Source: Trichormus sp. ATA11-4-KO1 (GTDB lineage: Bacteria > Cyanobacteriota > Cyanobacteriia > Cyanobacteriales > Nostocaceae). Taken from it: DNA of 64,000 nt. The stretch's first letter is position 1. Every line of letters begins with the position of its first letter. The notes under the pieces are model-generated. The model had not been told where the DNA came from. It saw only the letters and a program-made list of their open reading frames with translations, and searched no databases. This document shows, piece after piece, positions 9,436-50,163 of the stretch. The translations under genes and the position numbers were made by a program. The stretch spans positions 64,001 to 128,000 of the forward strand of contig JAHHIM010000055.1 of NCBI GenBank assembly GCA_019358915.1, read 5' to 3'.

Positions 9436-10410
9436 CTAAACACTCATCTCTAGCATCCGTTGAATTGGACGCAGTGCAGCAATGCGGATCTCTTCTGACA
9501 TGGTAATTTCAGGAGTACGATTCTCCATAGCCCAATAAAGCTTTTCTAAAGTATTTAACCGCATAAATGGGCATTCATTACAATTGCAGTTATTCAATGG
9601 TGGCGCAGGAATAAAACGCTTATTGGGAGCTAGTTTTTGCATTTGGTGAATGATTCCAGGCTCTGTAGCCACGATAAATTCATTTGTTGGACTATTTTGA
9701 CAATATTTGAGTAAGGCGGCTGTGGAACCGATAAAACTGGCGTGGCGCAATACACTACTTTCACATTCTGGGTGGGCGATCGCCTCGGCTTCTGGGTGGG
9801 CAATTTTTAACTGCACAATTTTCTTTTCCGAAAAGGTTTCATGAACAATACAGCTACCTTGCCACAGCACCAAATCTCGTCCAGTTTGTTCCATAACATA
9901 TCGTCCTAAATTCCGGTCTGGGGCAAAAATAATCGGCTGTGACTGTGGTATCTGCTGCACAATCTTGACGGCGTTGGAACTGGTACAGATAATATCGCTC
10001 ATCGCCTTAATATCGGCAGAACAGTTAATGTAGGACACTACCAGATGATCCGGATGTGCTGCTTTAAAGGCGGCAAAAGCCTCTGGTGGACAACTGTCTG
10101 CTAAAGAGCAACCAGCAGCCAAATCTGGTAACAGCACCAATTTATCAGGATTAAGTATCTTTGCTGTTTCTGCCATAAAGTGAACACCAGCAAAAACAAT
10201 CACATCTGCATTGGTCTTTTCTGCGGCTTTAGCTAATTGTAATGAATCCCCAATAAAGTCGGCGATATCTTGAATATCTGGCTCTTGATAGTAATGCGCC
10301 AAAATCACTGCATTGAGTTCTTGCTTGAGACTCTCAATGGCAGCAAATAAATCTAGTGGTAGTCCACCCAGTTGGGTTTTATTTCGTTGAGGTAGTGCAG
10401 TGGTAAACAC
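9436..10410 (-). CDS. nadA: Quinolinate synthase A
   Basis: ILAHYYQ, GDSL, GVHFMAE, GCSLA, C.VH, HPEC, GST, CPFM motifs. Confidence 0.96.
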
Positions 10411-21300: not shown

Positions 21301-21373
21301 GGGGAATTAGCTCAGCTGGTAGAGCGCTGCGATCGCACCGCAGAGGTCAGGGATTCGAGTTCCCTATTCTCCA
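21301..21373 (+). tRNA. trnA: tRNA-Ala(CGC), probable prophage integration site
   Basis: GGGGAAT/ATTCTCC acceptor with G3-U70, anticodon loop ATCGCAC; phage genes start 64 bp downstream. Confidence 0.93.
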
Positions 21374-21436
21374 TTTTGACATTAAATGTTAGCTTTATTA
21401 ACCCCGCTTGCTGTCCTAATGTTGTCTTAAAGAATA

Positions 21437-41581: not shown

Positions 41582-41992
41582 ATGTTTGGTTTAGGTATTG
41601 CTAAGACGGCTTCAGGTATCGCTAAGACGGTAACAGGTAAGGTAAAGGATTTTAGGGGTGTGCTTGCTACTAACCCAGGGGCTTTAGGGTTAGCGCTACC
41701 ACCGCAAGTGCAACTTGGCATTAATGTAGCAAACTCCCTGGGACTTAAAATACCTTCGGCAGACGTGCTGAGTAAGCAAGTGATGTCGGAGTTAGACAAA
41801 GCAGTATTCGGGTTGTATCGTCCTAGCACTAAAGACCTTCTCAATGGTCTTAAAGGTAGAGTTAGCACTACCCCTGGATTAGACCAGTACTTGGAACAGT
41901 TAAGAAAGTCGGGTAACAGTACCCTAGATAAGATAGAAGAGGCTACCAATACCGCAGAAGACCTCCTATCATCTATTAACTGGTTACTTTAA
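41582..41992 (+). CDS. Phage hypothetical protein (probably late/virion)
   Basis: 136 aa; preceded by TGACTGAATA motif at 41549. Confidence 0.55.
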   Translation: MFGLGIAKTASGIAKTVTGKVKDFRGVLATNPGALGLALPPQVQLGINVANSLGLKIPSADVLSKQVMSELDKAVFGLYRPSTKDLLNGLKGRVSTTPGLDQYLEQLRKSGNSTLDKIEEATNTAEDLLSSINWLL

Positions 41993-42559
41993 CATCCACT
42001 GGGTATCCTTAAACTCAAACATCCTAGGCTTGTTACCCCACTGTGATACGTAAGCCATCCATACCTCACCGTGTATATTTAAATACCCGCAGTGAGGTGT
42101 ATTAGACTTACTATCGGGGTATATTTTTTTACACAACTCCTGGATATGGTGCCGTACTTTAGCTAAGTTATGTAGCTTTTCGGTGATGTGAAAGCTCACA
42201 TACTCGGATAAACCAGGTTTAAGTTTACCGTTTTCATAACCACCATACCTTACAAGGGTTGCTTGTCTAGTTATCTCCCGTGTTTCTGTTTGGTAGAACT
42301 TACTGGCAGCAGCTAACCTGTGACATGCAGGTACTACTACCTCTATGTAGTGTTTTATCCACCATAGGCACTGCTTATAAAATCGTACTTTTTTAGTGTT
42401 ACCCCGATTCTCGTTTAGTGTGGTTAGATCGGCGTACTTATCCCATATTTGGTGAAGTTTGGCTACTTTATTTTTATCCTTCTTAGCCGCTTGTACAGCC
42501 CCCCGGATGTCTAAGGGTAGCTGACCCCAGTTAGTATCATTCTCATTGTTACGAGTCAT
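41984..42559 (-). CDS. Basic hypothetical protein downstream of the ncRNA unit
   Basis: 191-aa ORF starting 23 nt after the tRNA-like RNA on the same strand. Confidence 0.65.
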   Translation of the reverse strand: MTRNNENDTNWGQLPLDIRGAVQAAKKDKNKVAKLHQIWDKYADLTTLNENRGNTKKVRFYKQCLWWIKHYIEVVVPACHRLAAASKFYQTETREITRQATLVRYGGYENGKLKPGLSEYVSFHITEKLHNLAKVRHHIQELCKKIYPDSKSNTPHCGYLNIHGEVWMAYVSQWGNKPRMFEFKDTQWMLK

Positions 42560-42581: not shown

Positions 42582-42657
42582 TGGAGCTAAAGGGAATCGA
42601 ACCCTTGTGCTAATGGTTTCACTTTGGCTTTACCACTAGACGACACCTACTAGCCCC
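42582..42657 (-). ncRNA. tmRNA tRNA-like-domain-only RNA (alanine acceptor, no D-stem, no tag ORF)
   Basis: GGGGCTA-GTAGGTGTCGTC-TAGTGGT-(14-nt loop)-ACCATTA-GCAC-AAGGG-TTCGATT-CCCTT-TAGCTCC-A; G3-U70, A73, canonical T-arm. Confidence 0.7.
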
Positions 42658-42665
42658 TTAGTGCT

Positions 42666-42702
42666 TAGTGATTTAAAGTAGCCCGAATACTTTAAACCAC
42701 TA
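42666..42702 (-). other. 15-bp hairpin separating the large RNA from the tRNA-like RNA
   Basis: TAGTGGTTTAAAGTA-TTCGGGC-TACTTTAAATCACTA; its one non-WC pair is G-U only on the minus strand. Confidence 0.7.
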
Positions 42703-42704
42703 GG

Positions 42705-43287
42705 CTATACCTTGACCCAGCCTCACCTCTAGCTTGGCTTTCAAGTCTCGGTATATTCACCTTTGGTTTTCCTTGGCTTTACTCAGGCTAGAGGACACTG
42801 AATAAAGACTTACTTGGTAGACCTTAGGTACTTTGTAAATGTAGATGATTTTTTAGGTCGAAGTCTACAGCTCCTTGACTTATGCGGCAAAGCGTCAACC
42901 ACTTTTACGTCCCCCGCTAACGGCTACTTACGTAAGCAGCTACCGCCCATGTATGAAAGTTCTGAGTACTTTGCCCTTATCGTGGGCTACTCTGAGAGTA
43001 CCTTATTTTACTAGCATTAATACTCCCAACGCGCTAGTGTCCCCTGAGTTATTTAATGACCGACAGGTTAGGTCTAATAGCGCTACCTGTAGTTGAGAGT
43101 ACAGGCTTTACGGTTAGCTGAGGCTCTGTCTTTGTCTTAGATTTGGTAGTCTAACCAGCCCTACTAATCCCCAACCGTAAATATTTGCTTTATTCACATC
43201 CAGACTCTGTAGCTCTCGCCGTTCTTTGATGTGGAGGGGTCACCAAACCCTCGCGCGCTATATGAGTTAGATTTCTCTCCCTCACCC
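42705..43287 (-). ncRNA. Large (~580 nt) highly structured non-coding RNA, ROOL/GOLLD-like
   Basis: Own promoter, no credible same-strand ORF, many local and long-range helices (43171-81/43107-17, 43228-33/43195-200, 42997-43003/42826-32, 42864-69/42840-45, 42787-94/42726-33, 42750-55/42706-11). Confidence 0.65.
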
Positions 43288-43291
43288 TTTT

Positions 43292-43320
43292 ATAATAACA
43301 AGGTTTTCTAAGACTGTCAA
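43292..43320 (-). promoter_or_regulatory. Sigma70-type promoter for the ncRNA unit
   Basis: Minus strand TTGACA(43320-43315)-17 bp-TATTAT(43297-43292). Confidence 0.7.
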
Positions 43321-43338: not shown

Positions 43339-45504
43339 TTATTCCACTGGTGCGCCACCTATAACCGAGTTTAATCGTGTGCCCAACTTCTTGAAAATAT
43401 TAGCCGGGTTCTGAGCTACCCCGTTCTTTAGAGTCTCGAAGTGGCAATGGTCACCGCTACCTATTCCAGTACTACCCATTGTGGCAATCTGTTGCCCTTT
43501 CTTTACTTGCTCTCCTAACTTGACCAATAGTGTCGTGTTATGTAAATATCTGGTAGCCCAGCCGTTATCATGTCGGATTTTAAGCATATTCCCGGCTCCT
43601 CCTTGGAAGCCTATAGGTGCTACTACTACCCCGTCTCTAGCCGCATAGATTGGGGTACCTTTTTTATTAGCAATATCTATCCCCTTGTGGTTTCTACTAG
43701 CCCCAGGGATACCTGTGTTTCTCAGTCCGAACCCTGACGTTACCGTACCCGTACAAGGATATACCCAAACACCTGGGGTATCCGGTACGTTATTCTGCGG
43801 CATGGGCGCGTTAGGGGTATCGGCGGGCGTGTTATCCAGTACCTCTACCGGGCTGTACACATCTAAGGTAGAGGTATCAGAGGCTAACTTATGCGTTACT
43901 TTGTCGACTAACCAAATACGATCTAAGGGGCTAGGGAAACCTAGAGTACGCACTCCGTCCAATGGCTTCAATGGCATTGAAGCCGGGCTTAAGTTAACTG
44001 TAAACCTACTAGGTAGTCCCTTAACCCTCTTAAACCTAGACCTACTCTGATTTAATAATGCGTCCTGACCTGGACTAGGAGTCCCTGATATAACTTTAGT
44101 CTGGTTACCCGTAGCTGATATGTCTCGTGCTGGGTCTACGTCGATGTTCTTAGTTAGCATTTCCCCGGTTAGCGGTTCTACAGTTGCCTTAGGCTCCTCT
44201 TGAAGTAAACTAGACTCTTCCTGGTTTTTATCTAACGCCTTATCTACTACCTCATACTTGATAAGGTTACCTTCACGGGTTATCGTAAACCCTGTATCAT
44301 TTATTTTGTCCCTGGATTTAATAGTTAACGCCCCGTTATTCTCCGACACCCATAGTCCCGCATAGTTAGCCTCACGGATGAGTAACTGGTAATCGCTAAT
44401 ACCAGATTGGTCTATGTGTTGGTACAACGGGTCTAGAGTAGACTGCCAGTCTAACTTTATCTTATGGGCTTCTGCGATCGCTTGAGCTAGCTGTCTTAGG
44501 CTGGTATCCTTAACCGTCTTATTACGTTTCCGGCGGTTAAGTACCCACCGGATACCTTGCCCCATGACTTGAGTTTTACCTGTTTCATCCCACTTAGTAC
44601 CTTGATGGAAGAACTCGAAACTCACCCCGCACCAGTCGATGATTATTTTATTACCCTTGATAACCTCTTGTACGGTTTCAGGGATACTAGGGCGTAACGC
44701 GGATATGTCAGGTTCTACCTTAGTAGCTACAGGGGTTACTGTAGAACCTTTGTTATAAAATGCTAATCGTTCGTTATAGTATGCTATTGCTGCATCCACT
44801 GTCCAACCCGTCTGCTGTTCAGCAGCACCTGGAAGGCTAGTCCATTCATTCCTGCCTCTTCTTATTGCTTCTCGGATATCCCCAGCCAGTAAAGGCGCTA
44901 TCATCTTACGCTGACCCATTAACCAGAATGCGGCTCTATCCTGGGACGTGGGTAGGAAGTCCTTGAACTTACCAGGGTTCCTAGACTGTATATAACGCCA
45001 GGTCTTAGGTATAATCTGATACCTCCCGGATGCCCTTGTCCATTGAGTGATGGAAGTGGGATAACCTTTGGCGGCTTCTGCTTCTGTAAACCTAGTGTTA
45101 TTTATTCCTGTAAAGTACCATTCACGGGTTATTTGGAAGCTAAAGTAACCCCCAACCTCCCTAACAGCTATCATGTCCAGAAAAGCTTTAACCTGCGGGG
45201 TAAACGGTTCCCCGGTAGACTCTACGCCCACGTTACCATTACCGGGGGTTACTTTAGATGATTCAGGTGCCTGGTTACTGATTACGGGGCTATTATTAGG
45301 GTTAGGGGTTAACTGTCGGATACCCCCGGAGTTTATAGTATGGCTAATCAAAGCTGATGCTATTAAGCCTAGGGGGTCGGATAAAGTAATCATACAGTTA
45401 CTAGATTTATCATTTTGCCCAAGCGTTACTTCCAGGTCTATGAGTTCGTTCTTAGGCTTCCAGACCTGCCCAAAACCCTCTAAGCTAACCTCTACATCCC
45501 TCAT
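43339..45504 (-). CDS. Baseplate hub (late control D/gp27-like) with inserted lysozyme domain and C-terminal M23 peptidase
   Basis: FLDMIA..E, ASGRYQI..TW, SQDRAA, EWTSLPG (lambda-type muramidase); IDQSGISDYQLL (GPD-like); HKGIDI, YLH, HCHFE (M23). Confidence 0.82.
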   Translation of the reverse strand: MRDVEVSLEGFGQVWKPKNELIDLEVTLGQNDKSSNCMITLSDPLGLIASALISHTINSGGIRQLTPNPNNSPVISNQAPESSKVTPGNGNVGVESTGEPFTPQVKAFLDMIAVREVGGYFSFQITREWYFTGINNTRFTEAEAAKGYPTSITQWTRASGRYQIIPKTWRYIQSRNPGKFKDFLPTSQDRAAFWLMGQRKMIAPLLAGDIREAIRRGRNEWTSLPGAAEQQTGWTVDAAIAYYNERLAFYNKGSTVTPVATKVEPDISALRPSIPETVQEVIKGNKIIIDWCGVSFEFFHQGTKWDETGKTQVMGQGIRWVLNRRKRNKTVKDTSLRQLAQAIAEAHKIKLDWQSTLDPLYQHIDQSGISDYQLLIREANYAGLWVSENNGALTIKSRDKINDTGFTITREGNLIKYEVVDKALDKNQEESSLLQEEPKATVEPLTGEMLTKNIDVDPARDISATGNQTKVISGTPSPGQDALLNQSRSRFKRVKGLPSRFTVNLSPASMPLKPLDGVRTLGFPSPLDRIWLVDKVTHKLASDTSTLDVYSPVEVLDNTPADTPNAPMPQNNVPDTPGVWVYPCTGTVTSGFGLRNTGIPGASRNHKGIDIANKKGTPIYAARDGVVVAPIGFQGGAGNMLKIRHDNGWATRYLHNTTLLVKLGEQVKKGQQIATMGSTGIGSGDHCHFETLKNGVAQNPANIFKKLGTRLNSVIGGAPVE

Positions 45505-46884: not shown

Positions 46885-49800
46885 TTATACTAACATACTT
46901 AGTAACTGGCTAGGGGTTACTGTGTAACCTATGGGTAACCCTTGGGGCTGGCTAGGTGTTATTTGGGGGTCTTTAGGGTCTTTACGGAGGCAAAAAGGGT
47001 CTACGTCTACCGCAGAAAACCAAGCTACACCCGCCGGGATACAGTCTAACGACAAGGCGTCAATAAATGCGGCTCTAACGTATAAGTGGGCTAGTTGTAA
47101 TGCCCAAATAGCATTTCTGATGTTATTGGGGTCATCTCCCACCATCGTCCTAATCTCATCGTGGATGGTTATCAGAAGTTTCCCGTCTACTCCTAGTTTC
47201 TTATAGAAGTGTCTAGTTAGTAGGATTAACATATCTCTGAAGTCTACACCGGAACTCTGAATAGTCCAGTTTACTCTAGATGGTTTGAAGTCTTTAAACC
47301 CTGCTAGTGACCTACTCATTACATTTTTGAGTAAAGGTGTCTTGGGTACCTTGGAGTCCGCTATGGATTCCATAACGTTAAACGAATCCGATGCTAACCC
47401 CCCTGTGTACCTCTTGAAGCTTCCTAACGCCCCTTCTTCCCTTACGGTTTGACCCTTGAACTTATTGATAAATACTTTACTGTTAGCCTGTGCCTCAGCT
47501 AATGTCATTGTGGGGATGTTCTTTAGAAGCGCGTTAGTATCCCCGGTTAGCCCCTGTCCATAAATGCAGTTACCTGTGATAGTTATTGTGTCACCTTGAC
47601 GCATAACCCAAGTACCTAAAGCTGTAGTAGGACACCATACGGATGTGTTCTCAATGCGAGTTTTAACTAACCTCTGAGCAGTTATGTGCGGCTTGGTTAA
47701 GTTCATTTTTTGGACTTTATTACCGTATCTTGTACCAACAGAAACTCTGTAACCAATCAAATAAGCCGCTAGTTTAAAAGCTTCTGCATGATGCCCCATT
47801 TTCTGAGTTATGCACCAAGTGCCAGTGGCTCGATCTTGATGTCCATCACTAAGTAAAACCCCTAATACAAAAGATTGTAGCTCCCTGTAAGACATTTTCA
47901 GGATCTCCGGTATGTAGTCTGTGCCGTATTTAACCCCAAAAGACTTAAGACCATAACCTGAGCCGCCATTATAAGGGGCTGACACGGTTATATTATTTTC
48001 TTGTTTTATGTTATCTGTGGTGAATATCTGAAATATTGTGTATCCTTCCTTAACTCCTAGCTTCCTTACACGCTTAGACCCATACCATCTGTGATCACCT
48101 GTGCAAACTACAGACCACCCATGACTCATTTCTAACTTATACACCTCAGCGTCTTCGTGATATGTCATATGGGTTATAGGAGACCATTCATTAACCCCTG
48201 TTTCTGCGTTGTAGGCTAATATTTCTGTCCCATGAGATAACTCTGAGTAAACCCTCCAACCTTCTCTAGTCAGCGCTTGAGTATCCATTGGAACACAACC
48301 ATACACCCTGGTCTTAGTATTGTCTCTACTGATACCAGTCTCTTTCGCCATTAAGCTATGAATGTCTGTGGACGCTTCTAAGGTCTCAGCCTTAGCCCCC
48401 GCCACACAAATAAAGCCCATAGGAGTACTTGCATTAATACCTAACACTGAATCACCCATAATGCCCGCTAACCACGCTTCTTCACTGTCAATGTCCGCAC
48501 CTACAAGCACATAACCTTTAGGTGGGGCTACCATAGATTTAAGCTCGGTACCTAAGCGAGACTTTTTAGGGTTAGCCGCTACCTGCCAAAGGTTGTCGGC
48601 ACATCTCCCTGTTATGGTGCCGTTAACAAGTAACGAGGGTAGGGTGACAGGGAAACCTTCAGGCGATTCAGTATGGATGGCGGCTACTCGTTTACGTAAA
48701 CTTACCCAGTTTATTGTAGACACCTTTTCAGCTAACATCTGCTTTACTGAGTCATTAGCCGCACTAAGTACACCCTGTTCAAACGCTGCAACAAAGCCCT
48801 TAGCGAACACGGAGGTAACGTTTTTACCTCTAACTTCTGGATGTGGTAACCACCCGTGTACTTCTGTGTACCATGTTTTATTTTCATCATCCCAGAGCAA
48901 AGGCTCACCCCGCCAAGTTATCCCCATTACTATGGGCACAAAGCGCTTAGATAAGGTTAGGTCACCTTTGGCATAGTCAGATAGCACTTTACGGTACCAA
49001 GCGGGTAACCCTTTATTCTTCCCTGACTTCGCCGGATTCCAGTCTAACGCCAATGCTGGCTTAGGTAGGTTATCAGGGTCACACTGGGATAGGTATTCCT
49101 CCGCTAAAATCATCAAGTCTTTGTTAGTCTTTACGGCTAACTCTTGATACATATTCTCTGCGGTCTCGTAATACTTAGGAAACCTATCAGCATCTAAAGG
49201 TAACCAGCACGACCCTAATAAAATAGACCCGGACTGCGCGACTAAGCTAGGTCTATGGTTAAGGTACTCAGGGTAGAGTCTCTTGAATAGCTGTGCTGTA
49301 TGTAGCACATCTTCACAGCAATACCTGATAACCTCCAGCATGTTATCCCTAACCCAGGGTAGCCCGTCATTAACTATGTTATCTCTAACCCCTTTGTCTA
49401 GTGGTTTGTTAAAGAAGAACTCGTATACCGCAGATAAGCTGTTAGTTGCTGTCTCGCCCATCCAGTCTAGGTTAGTATCTTCGTCTAGATACAAGGGTCT
49501 TTGCTGGTTACTTAAACCACGGCATATTATCCACGCAGACATTAGGTCGAAGAATCGGTTACCCGTATCCTCCATCTGGTACTCAGATGATAAATAAGCT
49601 CTGTCATACTGAGTGTTGTAGTTTACCATTAGGTTATTAAAACCGTAGGGGATAATAGAGGGCATCTGGTCGAAGTCGGTAACCCAAAGTAGCCAACCCC
49701 TAGCAGACATAGCCACAGCGCAAGTAGGTAACCACCTATCCCCCACTTGCACCGTTTCAGTATCTTGGAAGAACACCTTCCCAGATATTGGCTTTTCAAG

Positions 49801-50163
49801 GAGTTTCCATCGCTCACCTTTAGGGCACCAGTATTGCCATTTCCCTTTAATGGTATTGAAGTTAGTGGGTAGTTCTGGGAACTCCCAAGACATAATAGAA
49901 CCTAACGCGTCAAGAGTACTCTTAGTATGTTCTGCGATCGCTTGCTCCAGTTCTTGTTCCAGCGTACCAAAGTTATCAGGGATAGGTAGTTCTGCAACTT
50001 CGTTATTGTCATTGGCTTGATGAAGCCCGAACGGCTTTAGTTTATTTTCTATTTTCTGTTTATCTAGAATACTTAAGGGATTTGAAGGGTAACCCAATAC
50101 CCTTACTTGAAGATCATCGGAAAGCTTTTTAATGTGCATTGGTAATCCTGGTTTATACAACAT
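46885..50163 (-). CDS. Family A DNA polymerase, mitochondrial Pol gamma-like, with intein
   Basis: DTET, NTQYDRA exo motifs; GTITGR, LGTELKSMVAPPKGYVLVGADIDSEE (motif A), SRVNWTIQSSGVD, TIHDEIR (motif C), FSAVDVD..LRK parallel Pol gamma. Confidence 0.92.
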   Translation of the reverse strand: MLYKPGLPMHIKKLSDDLQVRVLGYPSNPLSILDKQKIENKLKPFGLHQANDNNEVAELPIPDNFGTLEQELEQAIAEHTKSTLDALGSIMSWEFPELPTNFNTIKGKWQYWCPKGERWKLLEKPISGKVFFQDTETVQVGDRWLPTCAVAMSARGWLLWVTDFDQMPSIIPYGFNNLMVNYNTQYDRAYLSSEYQMEDTGNRFFDLMSAWIICRGLSNQQRPLYLDEDTNLDWMGETATNSLSAVYEFFFNKPLDKGVRDNIVNDGLPWVRDNMLEVIRYCCEDVLHTAQLFKRLYPEYLNHRPSLVAQSGSILLGSCWLPLDADRFPKYYETAENMYQELAVKTNKDLMILAEEYLSQCDPDNLPKPALALDWNPAKSGKNKGLPAWYRKVLSDYAKGDLTLSKRFVPIVMGITWRGEPLLWDDENKTWYTEVHGWLPHPEVRGKNVTSVFAKGFVAAFEQGVLSAANDSVKQMLAEKVSTINWVSLRKRVAAIHTESPEGFPVTLPSLLVNGTITGRCADNLWQVAANPKKSRLGTELKSMVAPPKGYVLVGADIDSEEAWLAGIMGDSVLGINASTPMGFICVAGAKAETLEASTDIHSLMAKETGISRDNTKTRVYGCVPMDTQALTREGWRVYSELSHGTEILAYNAETGVNEWSPITHMTYHEDAEVYKLEMSHGWSVVCTGDHRWYGSKRVRKLGVKEGYTIFQIFTTDNIKQENNITVSAPYNGGSGYGLKSFGVKYGTDYIPEILKMSYRELQSFVLGVLLSDGHQDRATGTWCITQKMGHHAEAFKLAAYLIGYRVSVGTRYGNKVQKMNLTKPHITAQRLVKTRIENTSVWCPTTALGTWVMRQGDTITITGNCIYGQGLTGDTNALLKNIPTMTLAEAQANSKVFINKFKGQTVREEGALGSFKRYTGGLASDSFNVMESIADSKVPKTPLLKNVMSRSLAGFKDFKPSRVNWTIQSSGVDFRDMLILLTRHFYKKLGVDGKLLITIHDEIRTMVGDDPNNIRNAIWALQLAHLYVRAAFIDALSLDCIPAGVAWFSAVDVDPFCLRKDPKDPQITPSQPQGLPIGYTVTPSQLLSMLV
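47569..48297 (-). mobile_element. Intein (243 aa) in polymerase motif B
   Basis: YG|CVPMDTQALTREGW ... TGDHRW (block B) ... VWCPTTALGTWV ... TITGN|CIYG; LAGLIDADG-like FVLGVLLSDG. Confidence 0.9.

Follow-up and report, generated by a model that had tools for sequence, protein, structure and literature searches.

Two families of large RNA and one phage RNA multimer are the described systems closest to the RNA that we report here. ROOL, as presented in the available part of PMC5737381, is ∼580 nt long (581), contains several pseudoknots and occurs in a prophage/tRNA context; a long helix pairs its 5′ and 3′ ends, and it assembles into a hexameric or octameric nanocage. The accessible portions of PMC12286853 and PMC12990946 describe GOLLD as a large RNA that prophages carry next to genes for tRNAs or tRNA-like RNAs, with a variable 5′ domain, a conserved 3′ domain and kissing loops; GOLLD forms a 10- to 14-mer cage and is induced during lysis. 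The same portion of PMC12990946 names the phi29 prohead RNA as a natural RNA multimer. In the part of PMC10690425 available to us, a virus-wide RNA screen reported candidates of no more than 151 bases. No description of an RNA such as the one below was found for cyanophages in the literature as far as it was accessible; large table 5 of PMC12286853 may list cyanobacterial hits.

We have identified a large structured non-coding RNA of ∼625 nt on the minus strand (43287–42663) of a 64,000-nt stretch of a Trichormus contig, JAHHIM010000055.1 (hereafter the window). It represents a rare, undescribed kind of large phage RNA, akin to GOLLD and ROOL in context and design but a member of neither family. 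A match to the Rfam cyano_het_sRNA model marks the host as a heterocyst-forming cyanobacterium. Genes for terminase, portal, capsid, sheath, DNA polymerase and primase surround the RNA, and the phage genes are flanked by two identical 61-bp copies of the 3′ end of tRNA-Ala(CGC), spaced 46.6 kb apart, which identify an integrated prophage. The left copy, attL, lies at 21326–21386 (+) and the right one, attR, outside the window at C55:131921–131981. The 46.6-kb prophage appears complete, with the tRNA-Ala(CGC) gene as its attachment site. Its DNA polymerase gene (46885–50163, −) carries a ∼230-aa insert (query residues 625–853) that is unmatched in three other loci (L279, L280 and L255); the insert begins with CVP and ends with GNC, and it resembles an intein.

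Immediately upstream of the RNA are a 721-aa tail-associated lysozyme/M23 peptidase gene (43339–45504, −) and a sigma-70 promoter (43292–43320, −) of the form TTGACA-17-TATTAT with an extended −10 TG, matching the consensus at 11 of 12 positions. Since the promoter ends at 43292, transcription is predicted to start at about 43287–43285. The prophage contains 10 copies of this promoter type. The sequence-only reading, which had proposed a ROOL/GOLLD-like RNA at 42705–43287, stopped ∼45 nt short of the 3′ end at ∼42663; it had also passed over the terminal hairpin, the promoter and an adjacent mini-tmRNA. No intrinsic terminator was found behind the large RNA. Neither strand has a start-to-stop ORF longer than 73 aa over the RNA, the longest overlapping frames (66 and 73 codons) both lying on the opposite strand.

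A search of 42663–43287 with 4227 Rfam families, group I and II introns, RNase P and HEARO included, gave nothing better than E 5. The folding check proposed by the sequence-only reading was modest at its own coordinates (583 nt; z −1.86, with 4 of 100 shuffles as stable, and z −0.77 for the other strand) and clearer for the 626 nt that include the terminal hairpin (z −2.9, 0/20 shuffles; on repetition z −2.7, 0/40). The RNAs of three relatives described below are likewise more stable than their shuffles, at z −2.2 (L279), −2.0 (L280) and −5.1 (L254). Antisense strands fold well too, at z −2.1 for the window and −4.3 for L254.

Relatives were located through the tail gene that lies upstream of the RNA, and the two closest non-self loci proved to be syntenic phages. 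Among 42 loci, L279 (tail identity 59%) contains a homolog of the RNA detectable by nhmmer (E 3e-12), in a phage whose proteins are 47–74% identical to those of the window. The order of promoter, RNA and mini-tmRNA is shared with the window; in L279 a promoter is followed by an RNA of ∼710 nt, a degenerate tRNA, a further hairpin-containing stretch and a mini-tmRNA of its own (42.6 bits with the Rfam tmRNA model). The segment between its large RNA and mini-tmRNA (L279:14274–14430) comprises the degenerate tRNA, which scores 28.5 bits and whose anticodon loop is shortened, together with a second element that forms a hairpin. Indels of 1, 2, 4, 5, 13 and 31 nt separate the two RNAs, so that no reading frame is common to both.

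The predicted structure was compared with L279; pairs were counted on a sequence-only (MAFFT) alignment unless a hand-set register is stated. As many as 344 helices of at least 5 bp are possible in the window RNA, and a list of helices read from the window is therefore weak evidence; just three of the 344 are fully kept in the alignment. Two of these three had been predicted from the window alone: the loop–loop helix of the sequence-only reading and the minimum free energy (MFE) helix AAAGUG/CGCUUU. Under a simple model the chance of their conservation is 0.007 and 0.013. Both are aligned without any shift of register, and it is on these two that we put the weight, because other registers were set by hand. 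A joint chance of 9e-9 involves hand registers in two of its four helices, and a count of 44 double changes comes from hand-picked registers. In two raw MAFFT alignments the pair counts are modest, the paired fraction being reached by 22 and 33 of 500 shuffles, and the number of double changes by 127 and 61 of 500. The apparent covariation comes mostly from two sequences, with one relative, L279, alignable by sequence.

The RNA begins with a variable 5′ domain (43077–43287), a leader stem with a GNRA hairpin followed by more hairpins, which is unalignable with L279 except that both start with a similar stem and GNRA hairpin. Next comes predicted pseudoknot 1 (43043–43074), in which the CCUG loop of a GACC/GGUC hairpin is paired to CAGG. 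It is identical in L279 in 8/8 pairs, within 35 of 41 identical nucleotides, and being invariant it gives no covariation. The following hairpin, ACUAGC/GCUAGU (43010–43038), reads ACGUCC/GGACGU in L279, with three double changes after one gap is moved; 4/6 pairs hold at the MAFFT register. Predicted pseudoknot 2 (42875–42917) combines GCGG/CCGC, invariant in L279, with AAAGUG/CGCUUU, which keeps 6/6 pairs with two double changes in unshifted register, and with a loop UUGA that pairs UCAA. This last pairing is found in L279 (4/4, with three double changes) by hand register only and scores 0/4 at the MAFFT register; the corresponding TTGAC/GTCAA helix of the sequence-only reading has 1/5 pairs as aligned by MAFFT, and 4/4 with three double changes once the 3′ strand is hand-placed.

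The 3′ domain is predicted to consist of hairpin A (42777–42807), a small hairpin, hairpin B (42706–42755) and terminal hairpin C (42666–42702). The loop of hairpin A contains a kissing strand, CCUCUAGC (42794–42787), complementary to the 8-nt loop GCUAGAGG (42733–42726) of hairpin B. This is the 8-bp helix that had been put forward as a pseudoknot, CCTCTAGC/GCTAGAGG. It keeps 8/8 pairs in L279 with two double changes in unshifted register; elsewhere, eight pairs are found in L280 and six in L254. Hairpin C has a 15-bp stem and a UUCGGGC loop and lacks a U tract; compared with L279, the loop is identical and the stem rewritten. The sole palindromic loop of the window RNA, UUACGUAA, is not kept in L279. 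The sequence GUAAAGCC occurs three times on the minus strand, at 43112 and 42782 in the large RNA and at 42634 in the tip of the mini-tmRNA; L279 keeps only the last copy.

Against this structure the earlier helix assignments can be judged. All 12 listed strand pairs do occur on the minus strand in the order given, and the GGC-GAGA-GCT hairpin is part of the MFE fold. AGGTACT/AGTACCT and TGTAGA/TCTACA survive in part in L279 (4/7 and 4/6 pairs). TATACC/GGTATA keeps 3/6 pairs as aligned and is present there as a helix in shifted register, and GCTGCTT/AAGTAGC, at 2/7, retains its CTT/AAG core (3/3). TATTCA/TGAATA (3/6), GAGTA/TACTC (2/5) and GCCC/GGGC (0/4) are not kept. TTTACGGTTGG, CACATC and CCTGTA belong to helices of the 5′ third, a part of the RNA unalignable with L279. 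About half of the proposed helices are, as judged from the alignment, not conserved; the wider interpretation, that a cyanobacterial prophage contains a large non-coding RNA with a conserved pseudoknotted fold, is supported.

Two further phages carry RNAs that appear to belong to the family. At the corresponding site L280 (tail identity 54%) has ∼400 nt behind a promoter, in which the 3′ part is laid out alike and the kissing pair is nearly identical, a likeness recognised by eye and by synteny only; the covariance model of the 3′ domain misses it. This model was built from the window alone, with the kiss left out. In L254 (tail identity 44%) it matches positions 9797–9979 with 23.7 bits (E 1.7e-4 in 588 kb, 2e-5 with filters off), the best unrelated score being 14.7. 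The match is the 3′ end of a ∼510-nt gene-free stretch led by a promoter, and two of its loops are complementary over 6 bp, though the model contained no kiss (0.006 for random loops). The L254 and L280 RNAs have a 12-nt motif in common. A ∼95-nt module is duplicated in tandem inside the L254 RNA (L254:9625–9790), and part of it recurs in L280.

The 3′ domain model scores 13.3 bits, at noise level, on the 3′ domain of L279 itself, and leave-one-out sequence profiles of the 3′ domain recovered none of the three relatives (L279, L280 and L254). In the genome search the same model matched 0/10 records, the record with L254 included, which marks the route as insensitive; run with filters off on 22 more loci, it found no further member. 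A structure-descriptor search ranked the window first, missed L279, L280 and L254, and was dropped. BLAST searches of the region against phages and plasmids, and of the L279 and L254 RNAs against phages, returned only tRNA/tmRNA-end or chance matches. Whole-genome DNA searches gave matches in 9 of 401 genomes of the order and 6 of 389 of the family, which besides the own genome were only short chance, promoter or tmRNA-end matches. The kissing pattern was found in 1 of 401 genomes, the own one. IMG/VR scans with the core pseudoknot and kissing-loop patterns returned only the prophage's own copy.

Related cyanophages contain other stretches of similar appearance. Promoter-led, gene-free, hairpin-rich stretches of 200–500 nt start at L283:1527 (−), L281:6572 (−) and L293:7584 (−) and occupy L280:12732–12940 (+); by nhmmer they are unrelated. 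In two Floridaenema prophages (L263/L264:9883–9254, −) a ∼630-nt promoter-led gene-free stretch lies upstream of the tail gene. Its two copies have 13 differences, eight of them in predicted stems, of which six keep the pair (A-U/G-U, G-C/U changes aside). The stretches in L263/L264, L281, L283 and L293 do not match the window RNA family, and that in L263/L264 has no Rfam match either; the L263/L264 stretch is a candidate for another large RNA.

The sequence-only reading had suggested a ROOL host-range extension or a sister family, and had compared the 3′ segment with these families. Neither the ROOL model (RF03087, cut-off 99.1 bits) nor the GOLLD model (RF02032, a 3′-domain model, cut-off 150 bits) has a match at E≤10 in the window (searched with local models), the genome or the relatives. 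As controls, the ROOL model scored 130.4 bits on its carrier plasmid pMP118 and the GOLLD model 70.3 bits (E 4e-17) on a divergent phage copy. This divergent GOLLD (L337:1501–1957, record of L132; 70 bits, below the cut-off) has a tRNA inside its linker, and the phage tRNA array around it opens with a mini-tmRNA. The supposed ROOL/GOLLD-like 3′ segment (GTGAATATACC..GAAAG) is not conserved in L279, and an IMG/VR scan with this motif gave no homolog in 120 of ∼180 matches. An extension of the ROOL host range is not supported; the sister-family option is.

Could the RNA still be a very divergent ROOL or GOLLD? Its length (625 nt), three predicted pseudoknots and prophage and tRNA-like context fit ROOL as described in the available part of PMC5737381. 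Both cryo-EM RNAs contain AAGGTGAAT, a 9-nt look-alike of the 3′-segment motif, and the ROOL consensus contains AGUAGCC. However, these short look-alikes are absent from L279, and real ROOL and GOLLD copies have no nhmmer or 3′ model link to the four RNAs. In place of the ROOL end-to-end helix, the window and L279 folds have separate 5′ leader and 3′ terminal hairpins; the host is a cyanobacterium; and the GOLLD motifs UCAAAAG, GCAAAA and CUCAGC end are missing from the window RNA and L279. The 3′ domain spans ∼150–190 nt (three or four hairpins), against ∼400 in GOLLD. We therefore regard divergent membership as very unlikely. With the phi29 prohead RNA the window RNA shares two complementary loops able to pair between molecules; it differs in having no Rfam match, in being four times longer and in belonging to a tailed phage with an ordinary large terminase.

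The other conspicuous element of the locus is a mini-tmRNA of 76 nt (42582–42657, −), which consists of the tRNA-like domain only and starts 5 nt after the terminal hairpin of the large RNA. It scores 41.3 bits with the Rfam tmRNA model (E 7.6e-15; cut-off 47). The RF00023 alignment covers both ends and replaces 304 model positions by 10 nt. The molecule has a 7-bp acceptor stem with G3.U70, discriminator A, a tmRNA-type D loop without a stem and a T arm, and has no tag reading frame. The host genome encodes its own full tmRNA and SmpB. The design is that of the TLD-only tmRNA of mycobacteriophage DS6A as given in the accessible parts of PMC4131195 and PMC11915505, with the difference that here a large RNA precedes it; according to the same parts, which cite Mao 2009, a TLD-only tmRNA-like molecule inhibits tmRNA, perhaps by titrating SmpB.

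TLD-only tmRNAs are widespread in IMG/VR, where the pattern search listed at least 120 matches, 97 of them distinct and 62–92 nt long, out of an estimated ∼410 (L132–L251 and L272–L277). G3.U70 is present in all 97 and is no evidence, being forced by the search pattern. An A-rich-CC motif and a small hairpin at the helix-2 tip, as in the window, are seen in 45 of the 97, and tRNAs lie nearby in 14 of 66 longer loci. The 2025 tmRNA database contains only nine ‘standard, no CDS’ sequences; this number greatly understates how common the TLD-only form is in phages. In the majority of mini-tmRNA loci there is no large gene-free stretch next to the mini-tmRNA, and nhmmer found no match to the large RNA over 120 of them. 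No mini-tmRNA lies beside the RNA in L280 and L254, so that the pairing of the two RNAs is not obligatory.

Directly downstream of the mini-tmRNA is a gene for a 191-aa basic protein of no known family (41984–42559, −). It has no PHROG or Pfam match above cut-off, and a search of 1.84 billion representatives returned a single relative (35% identity). A conserved 136-aa ORF (41582–41992, +; 64% in L280) without a PHROG match is convergent with this orphan gene.

How might such an RNA work? We infer that host RNA polymerase would transcribe the large RNA and the mini-tmRNA together and that the transcript would be processed, since there is no terminator, the gap is 5 nt and the mini-tmRNA has a tRNA-like acceptor and T arm; co-transcription and processing we consider rather probable. 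RNase P matures the 5′ ends of tmRNAs, and a cut ahead of the mini-tmRNA would free the 3′ end of the large RNA behind hairpin C. Once freed, the RNA may serve in trans as a scaffold without protein, held together by the 8-bp loop–loop kiss in the way of GOLLD and ROOL, during the phage takeover of translation, in which the mini-tmRNA, by analogy, would bind SmpB and damp host trans-translation; this action and any multimer we likewise infer. As a whole, a conserved phage RNA made together with the mini-tmRNA, released by RNase P and acting as such a kissing-loop scaffold is our best explanation, for and against which we hold the balance to be even. An RNA-only scaffold is favoured because the context and the variable-5′/conserved-3′ plan of GOLLD are shared; the GOLLD/ROOL-like role itself, resting on this analogy, is tentative. 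The boldest version would add to GOLLD and ROOL a third family of phage RNA nanocages, independent of both and the first from cyanophages, with an intermolecular 8-bp kiss closing the ring and one transcript with the mini-tmRNA as a two-RNA module that would take over stalled-ribosome rescue of the host; it is speculative and unlikely.

The main rival of the scaffold reading makes the RNA a partner of the downstream basic protein, either in an RNP or as an antitoxin-like RNA restraining the protein, because that protein has one 35% relative and a weak likeness to an ORF in L280. In the window as in L280, the ORF that follows the RNA encodes an orphan protein rich in lysine and arginine, and comparison of the two proteins shows a weak likeness (27.7 bits, 0/200 shuffles as good) among neighbours that are 45–70% identical; the duplicated ∼95-nt module of the L254 RNA is reminiscent of antitoxin repeats. 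Yet in L254 the tail gene follows the RNA, the ORF downstream in L279 is cut short at 49 aa and has no significant match, a search of the phage loci outside L280 gave no relative of the protein, and no nuclease or toxin family matches. Such a partnership seems unlikely, if worth keeping in mind. A long cis-acting leader, or a processing or stability element of the downstream transcript, would account for promoter, RNA, mini-tmRNA and ORF lying on one strand with no terminator between, but a processable tRNA-like RNA precedes the ORF, with two more tRNA-like pieces in L279, the gene downstream differs in L254, and no Rfam riboswitch or leader matches; we judge it improbable.

A split tmRNA, in which the pseudoknots and tag frame missing from the mini-tmRNA would come from the large RNA, is barely credible, even though the two RNAs are adjacent and co-oriented, the large one is pseudoknot-rich, and its GUAAA is followed by a short frame with a GCC start, just as in the tip of the mini-tmRNA. 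That frame is not conserved in L279, no stretch of 7 nt or longer in the window's large RNA is complementary to its mini-tmRNA, the 76-nt piece is all that tmRNA models match, and most mini-tmRNA loci are without a large gene-free neighbour. Intergenic DNA with chance hairpins would agree with the modest z-score at the first coordinates and the 344 possible helices; conservation in L279, where compensatory changes are seen and proteins are 47–74% identical, makes it highly improbable. We hold with considerable confidence that the structured RNA is real and that its family is new.

Very few bacterial RNAs as large and complex as this are known, the phage-borne GOLLD and ROOL among them. With an unrelated family in their niche, one can ask whether phages in general rely on cages and on partners resembling tRNAs. 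The compact 46.6-kb cyanobacterial prophage offers a setting for deleting the large RNA, mini-tmRNA and orphan protein singly, and, with TLD-only tmRNAs common in phages, phage interference with trans-translation becomes testable.
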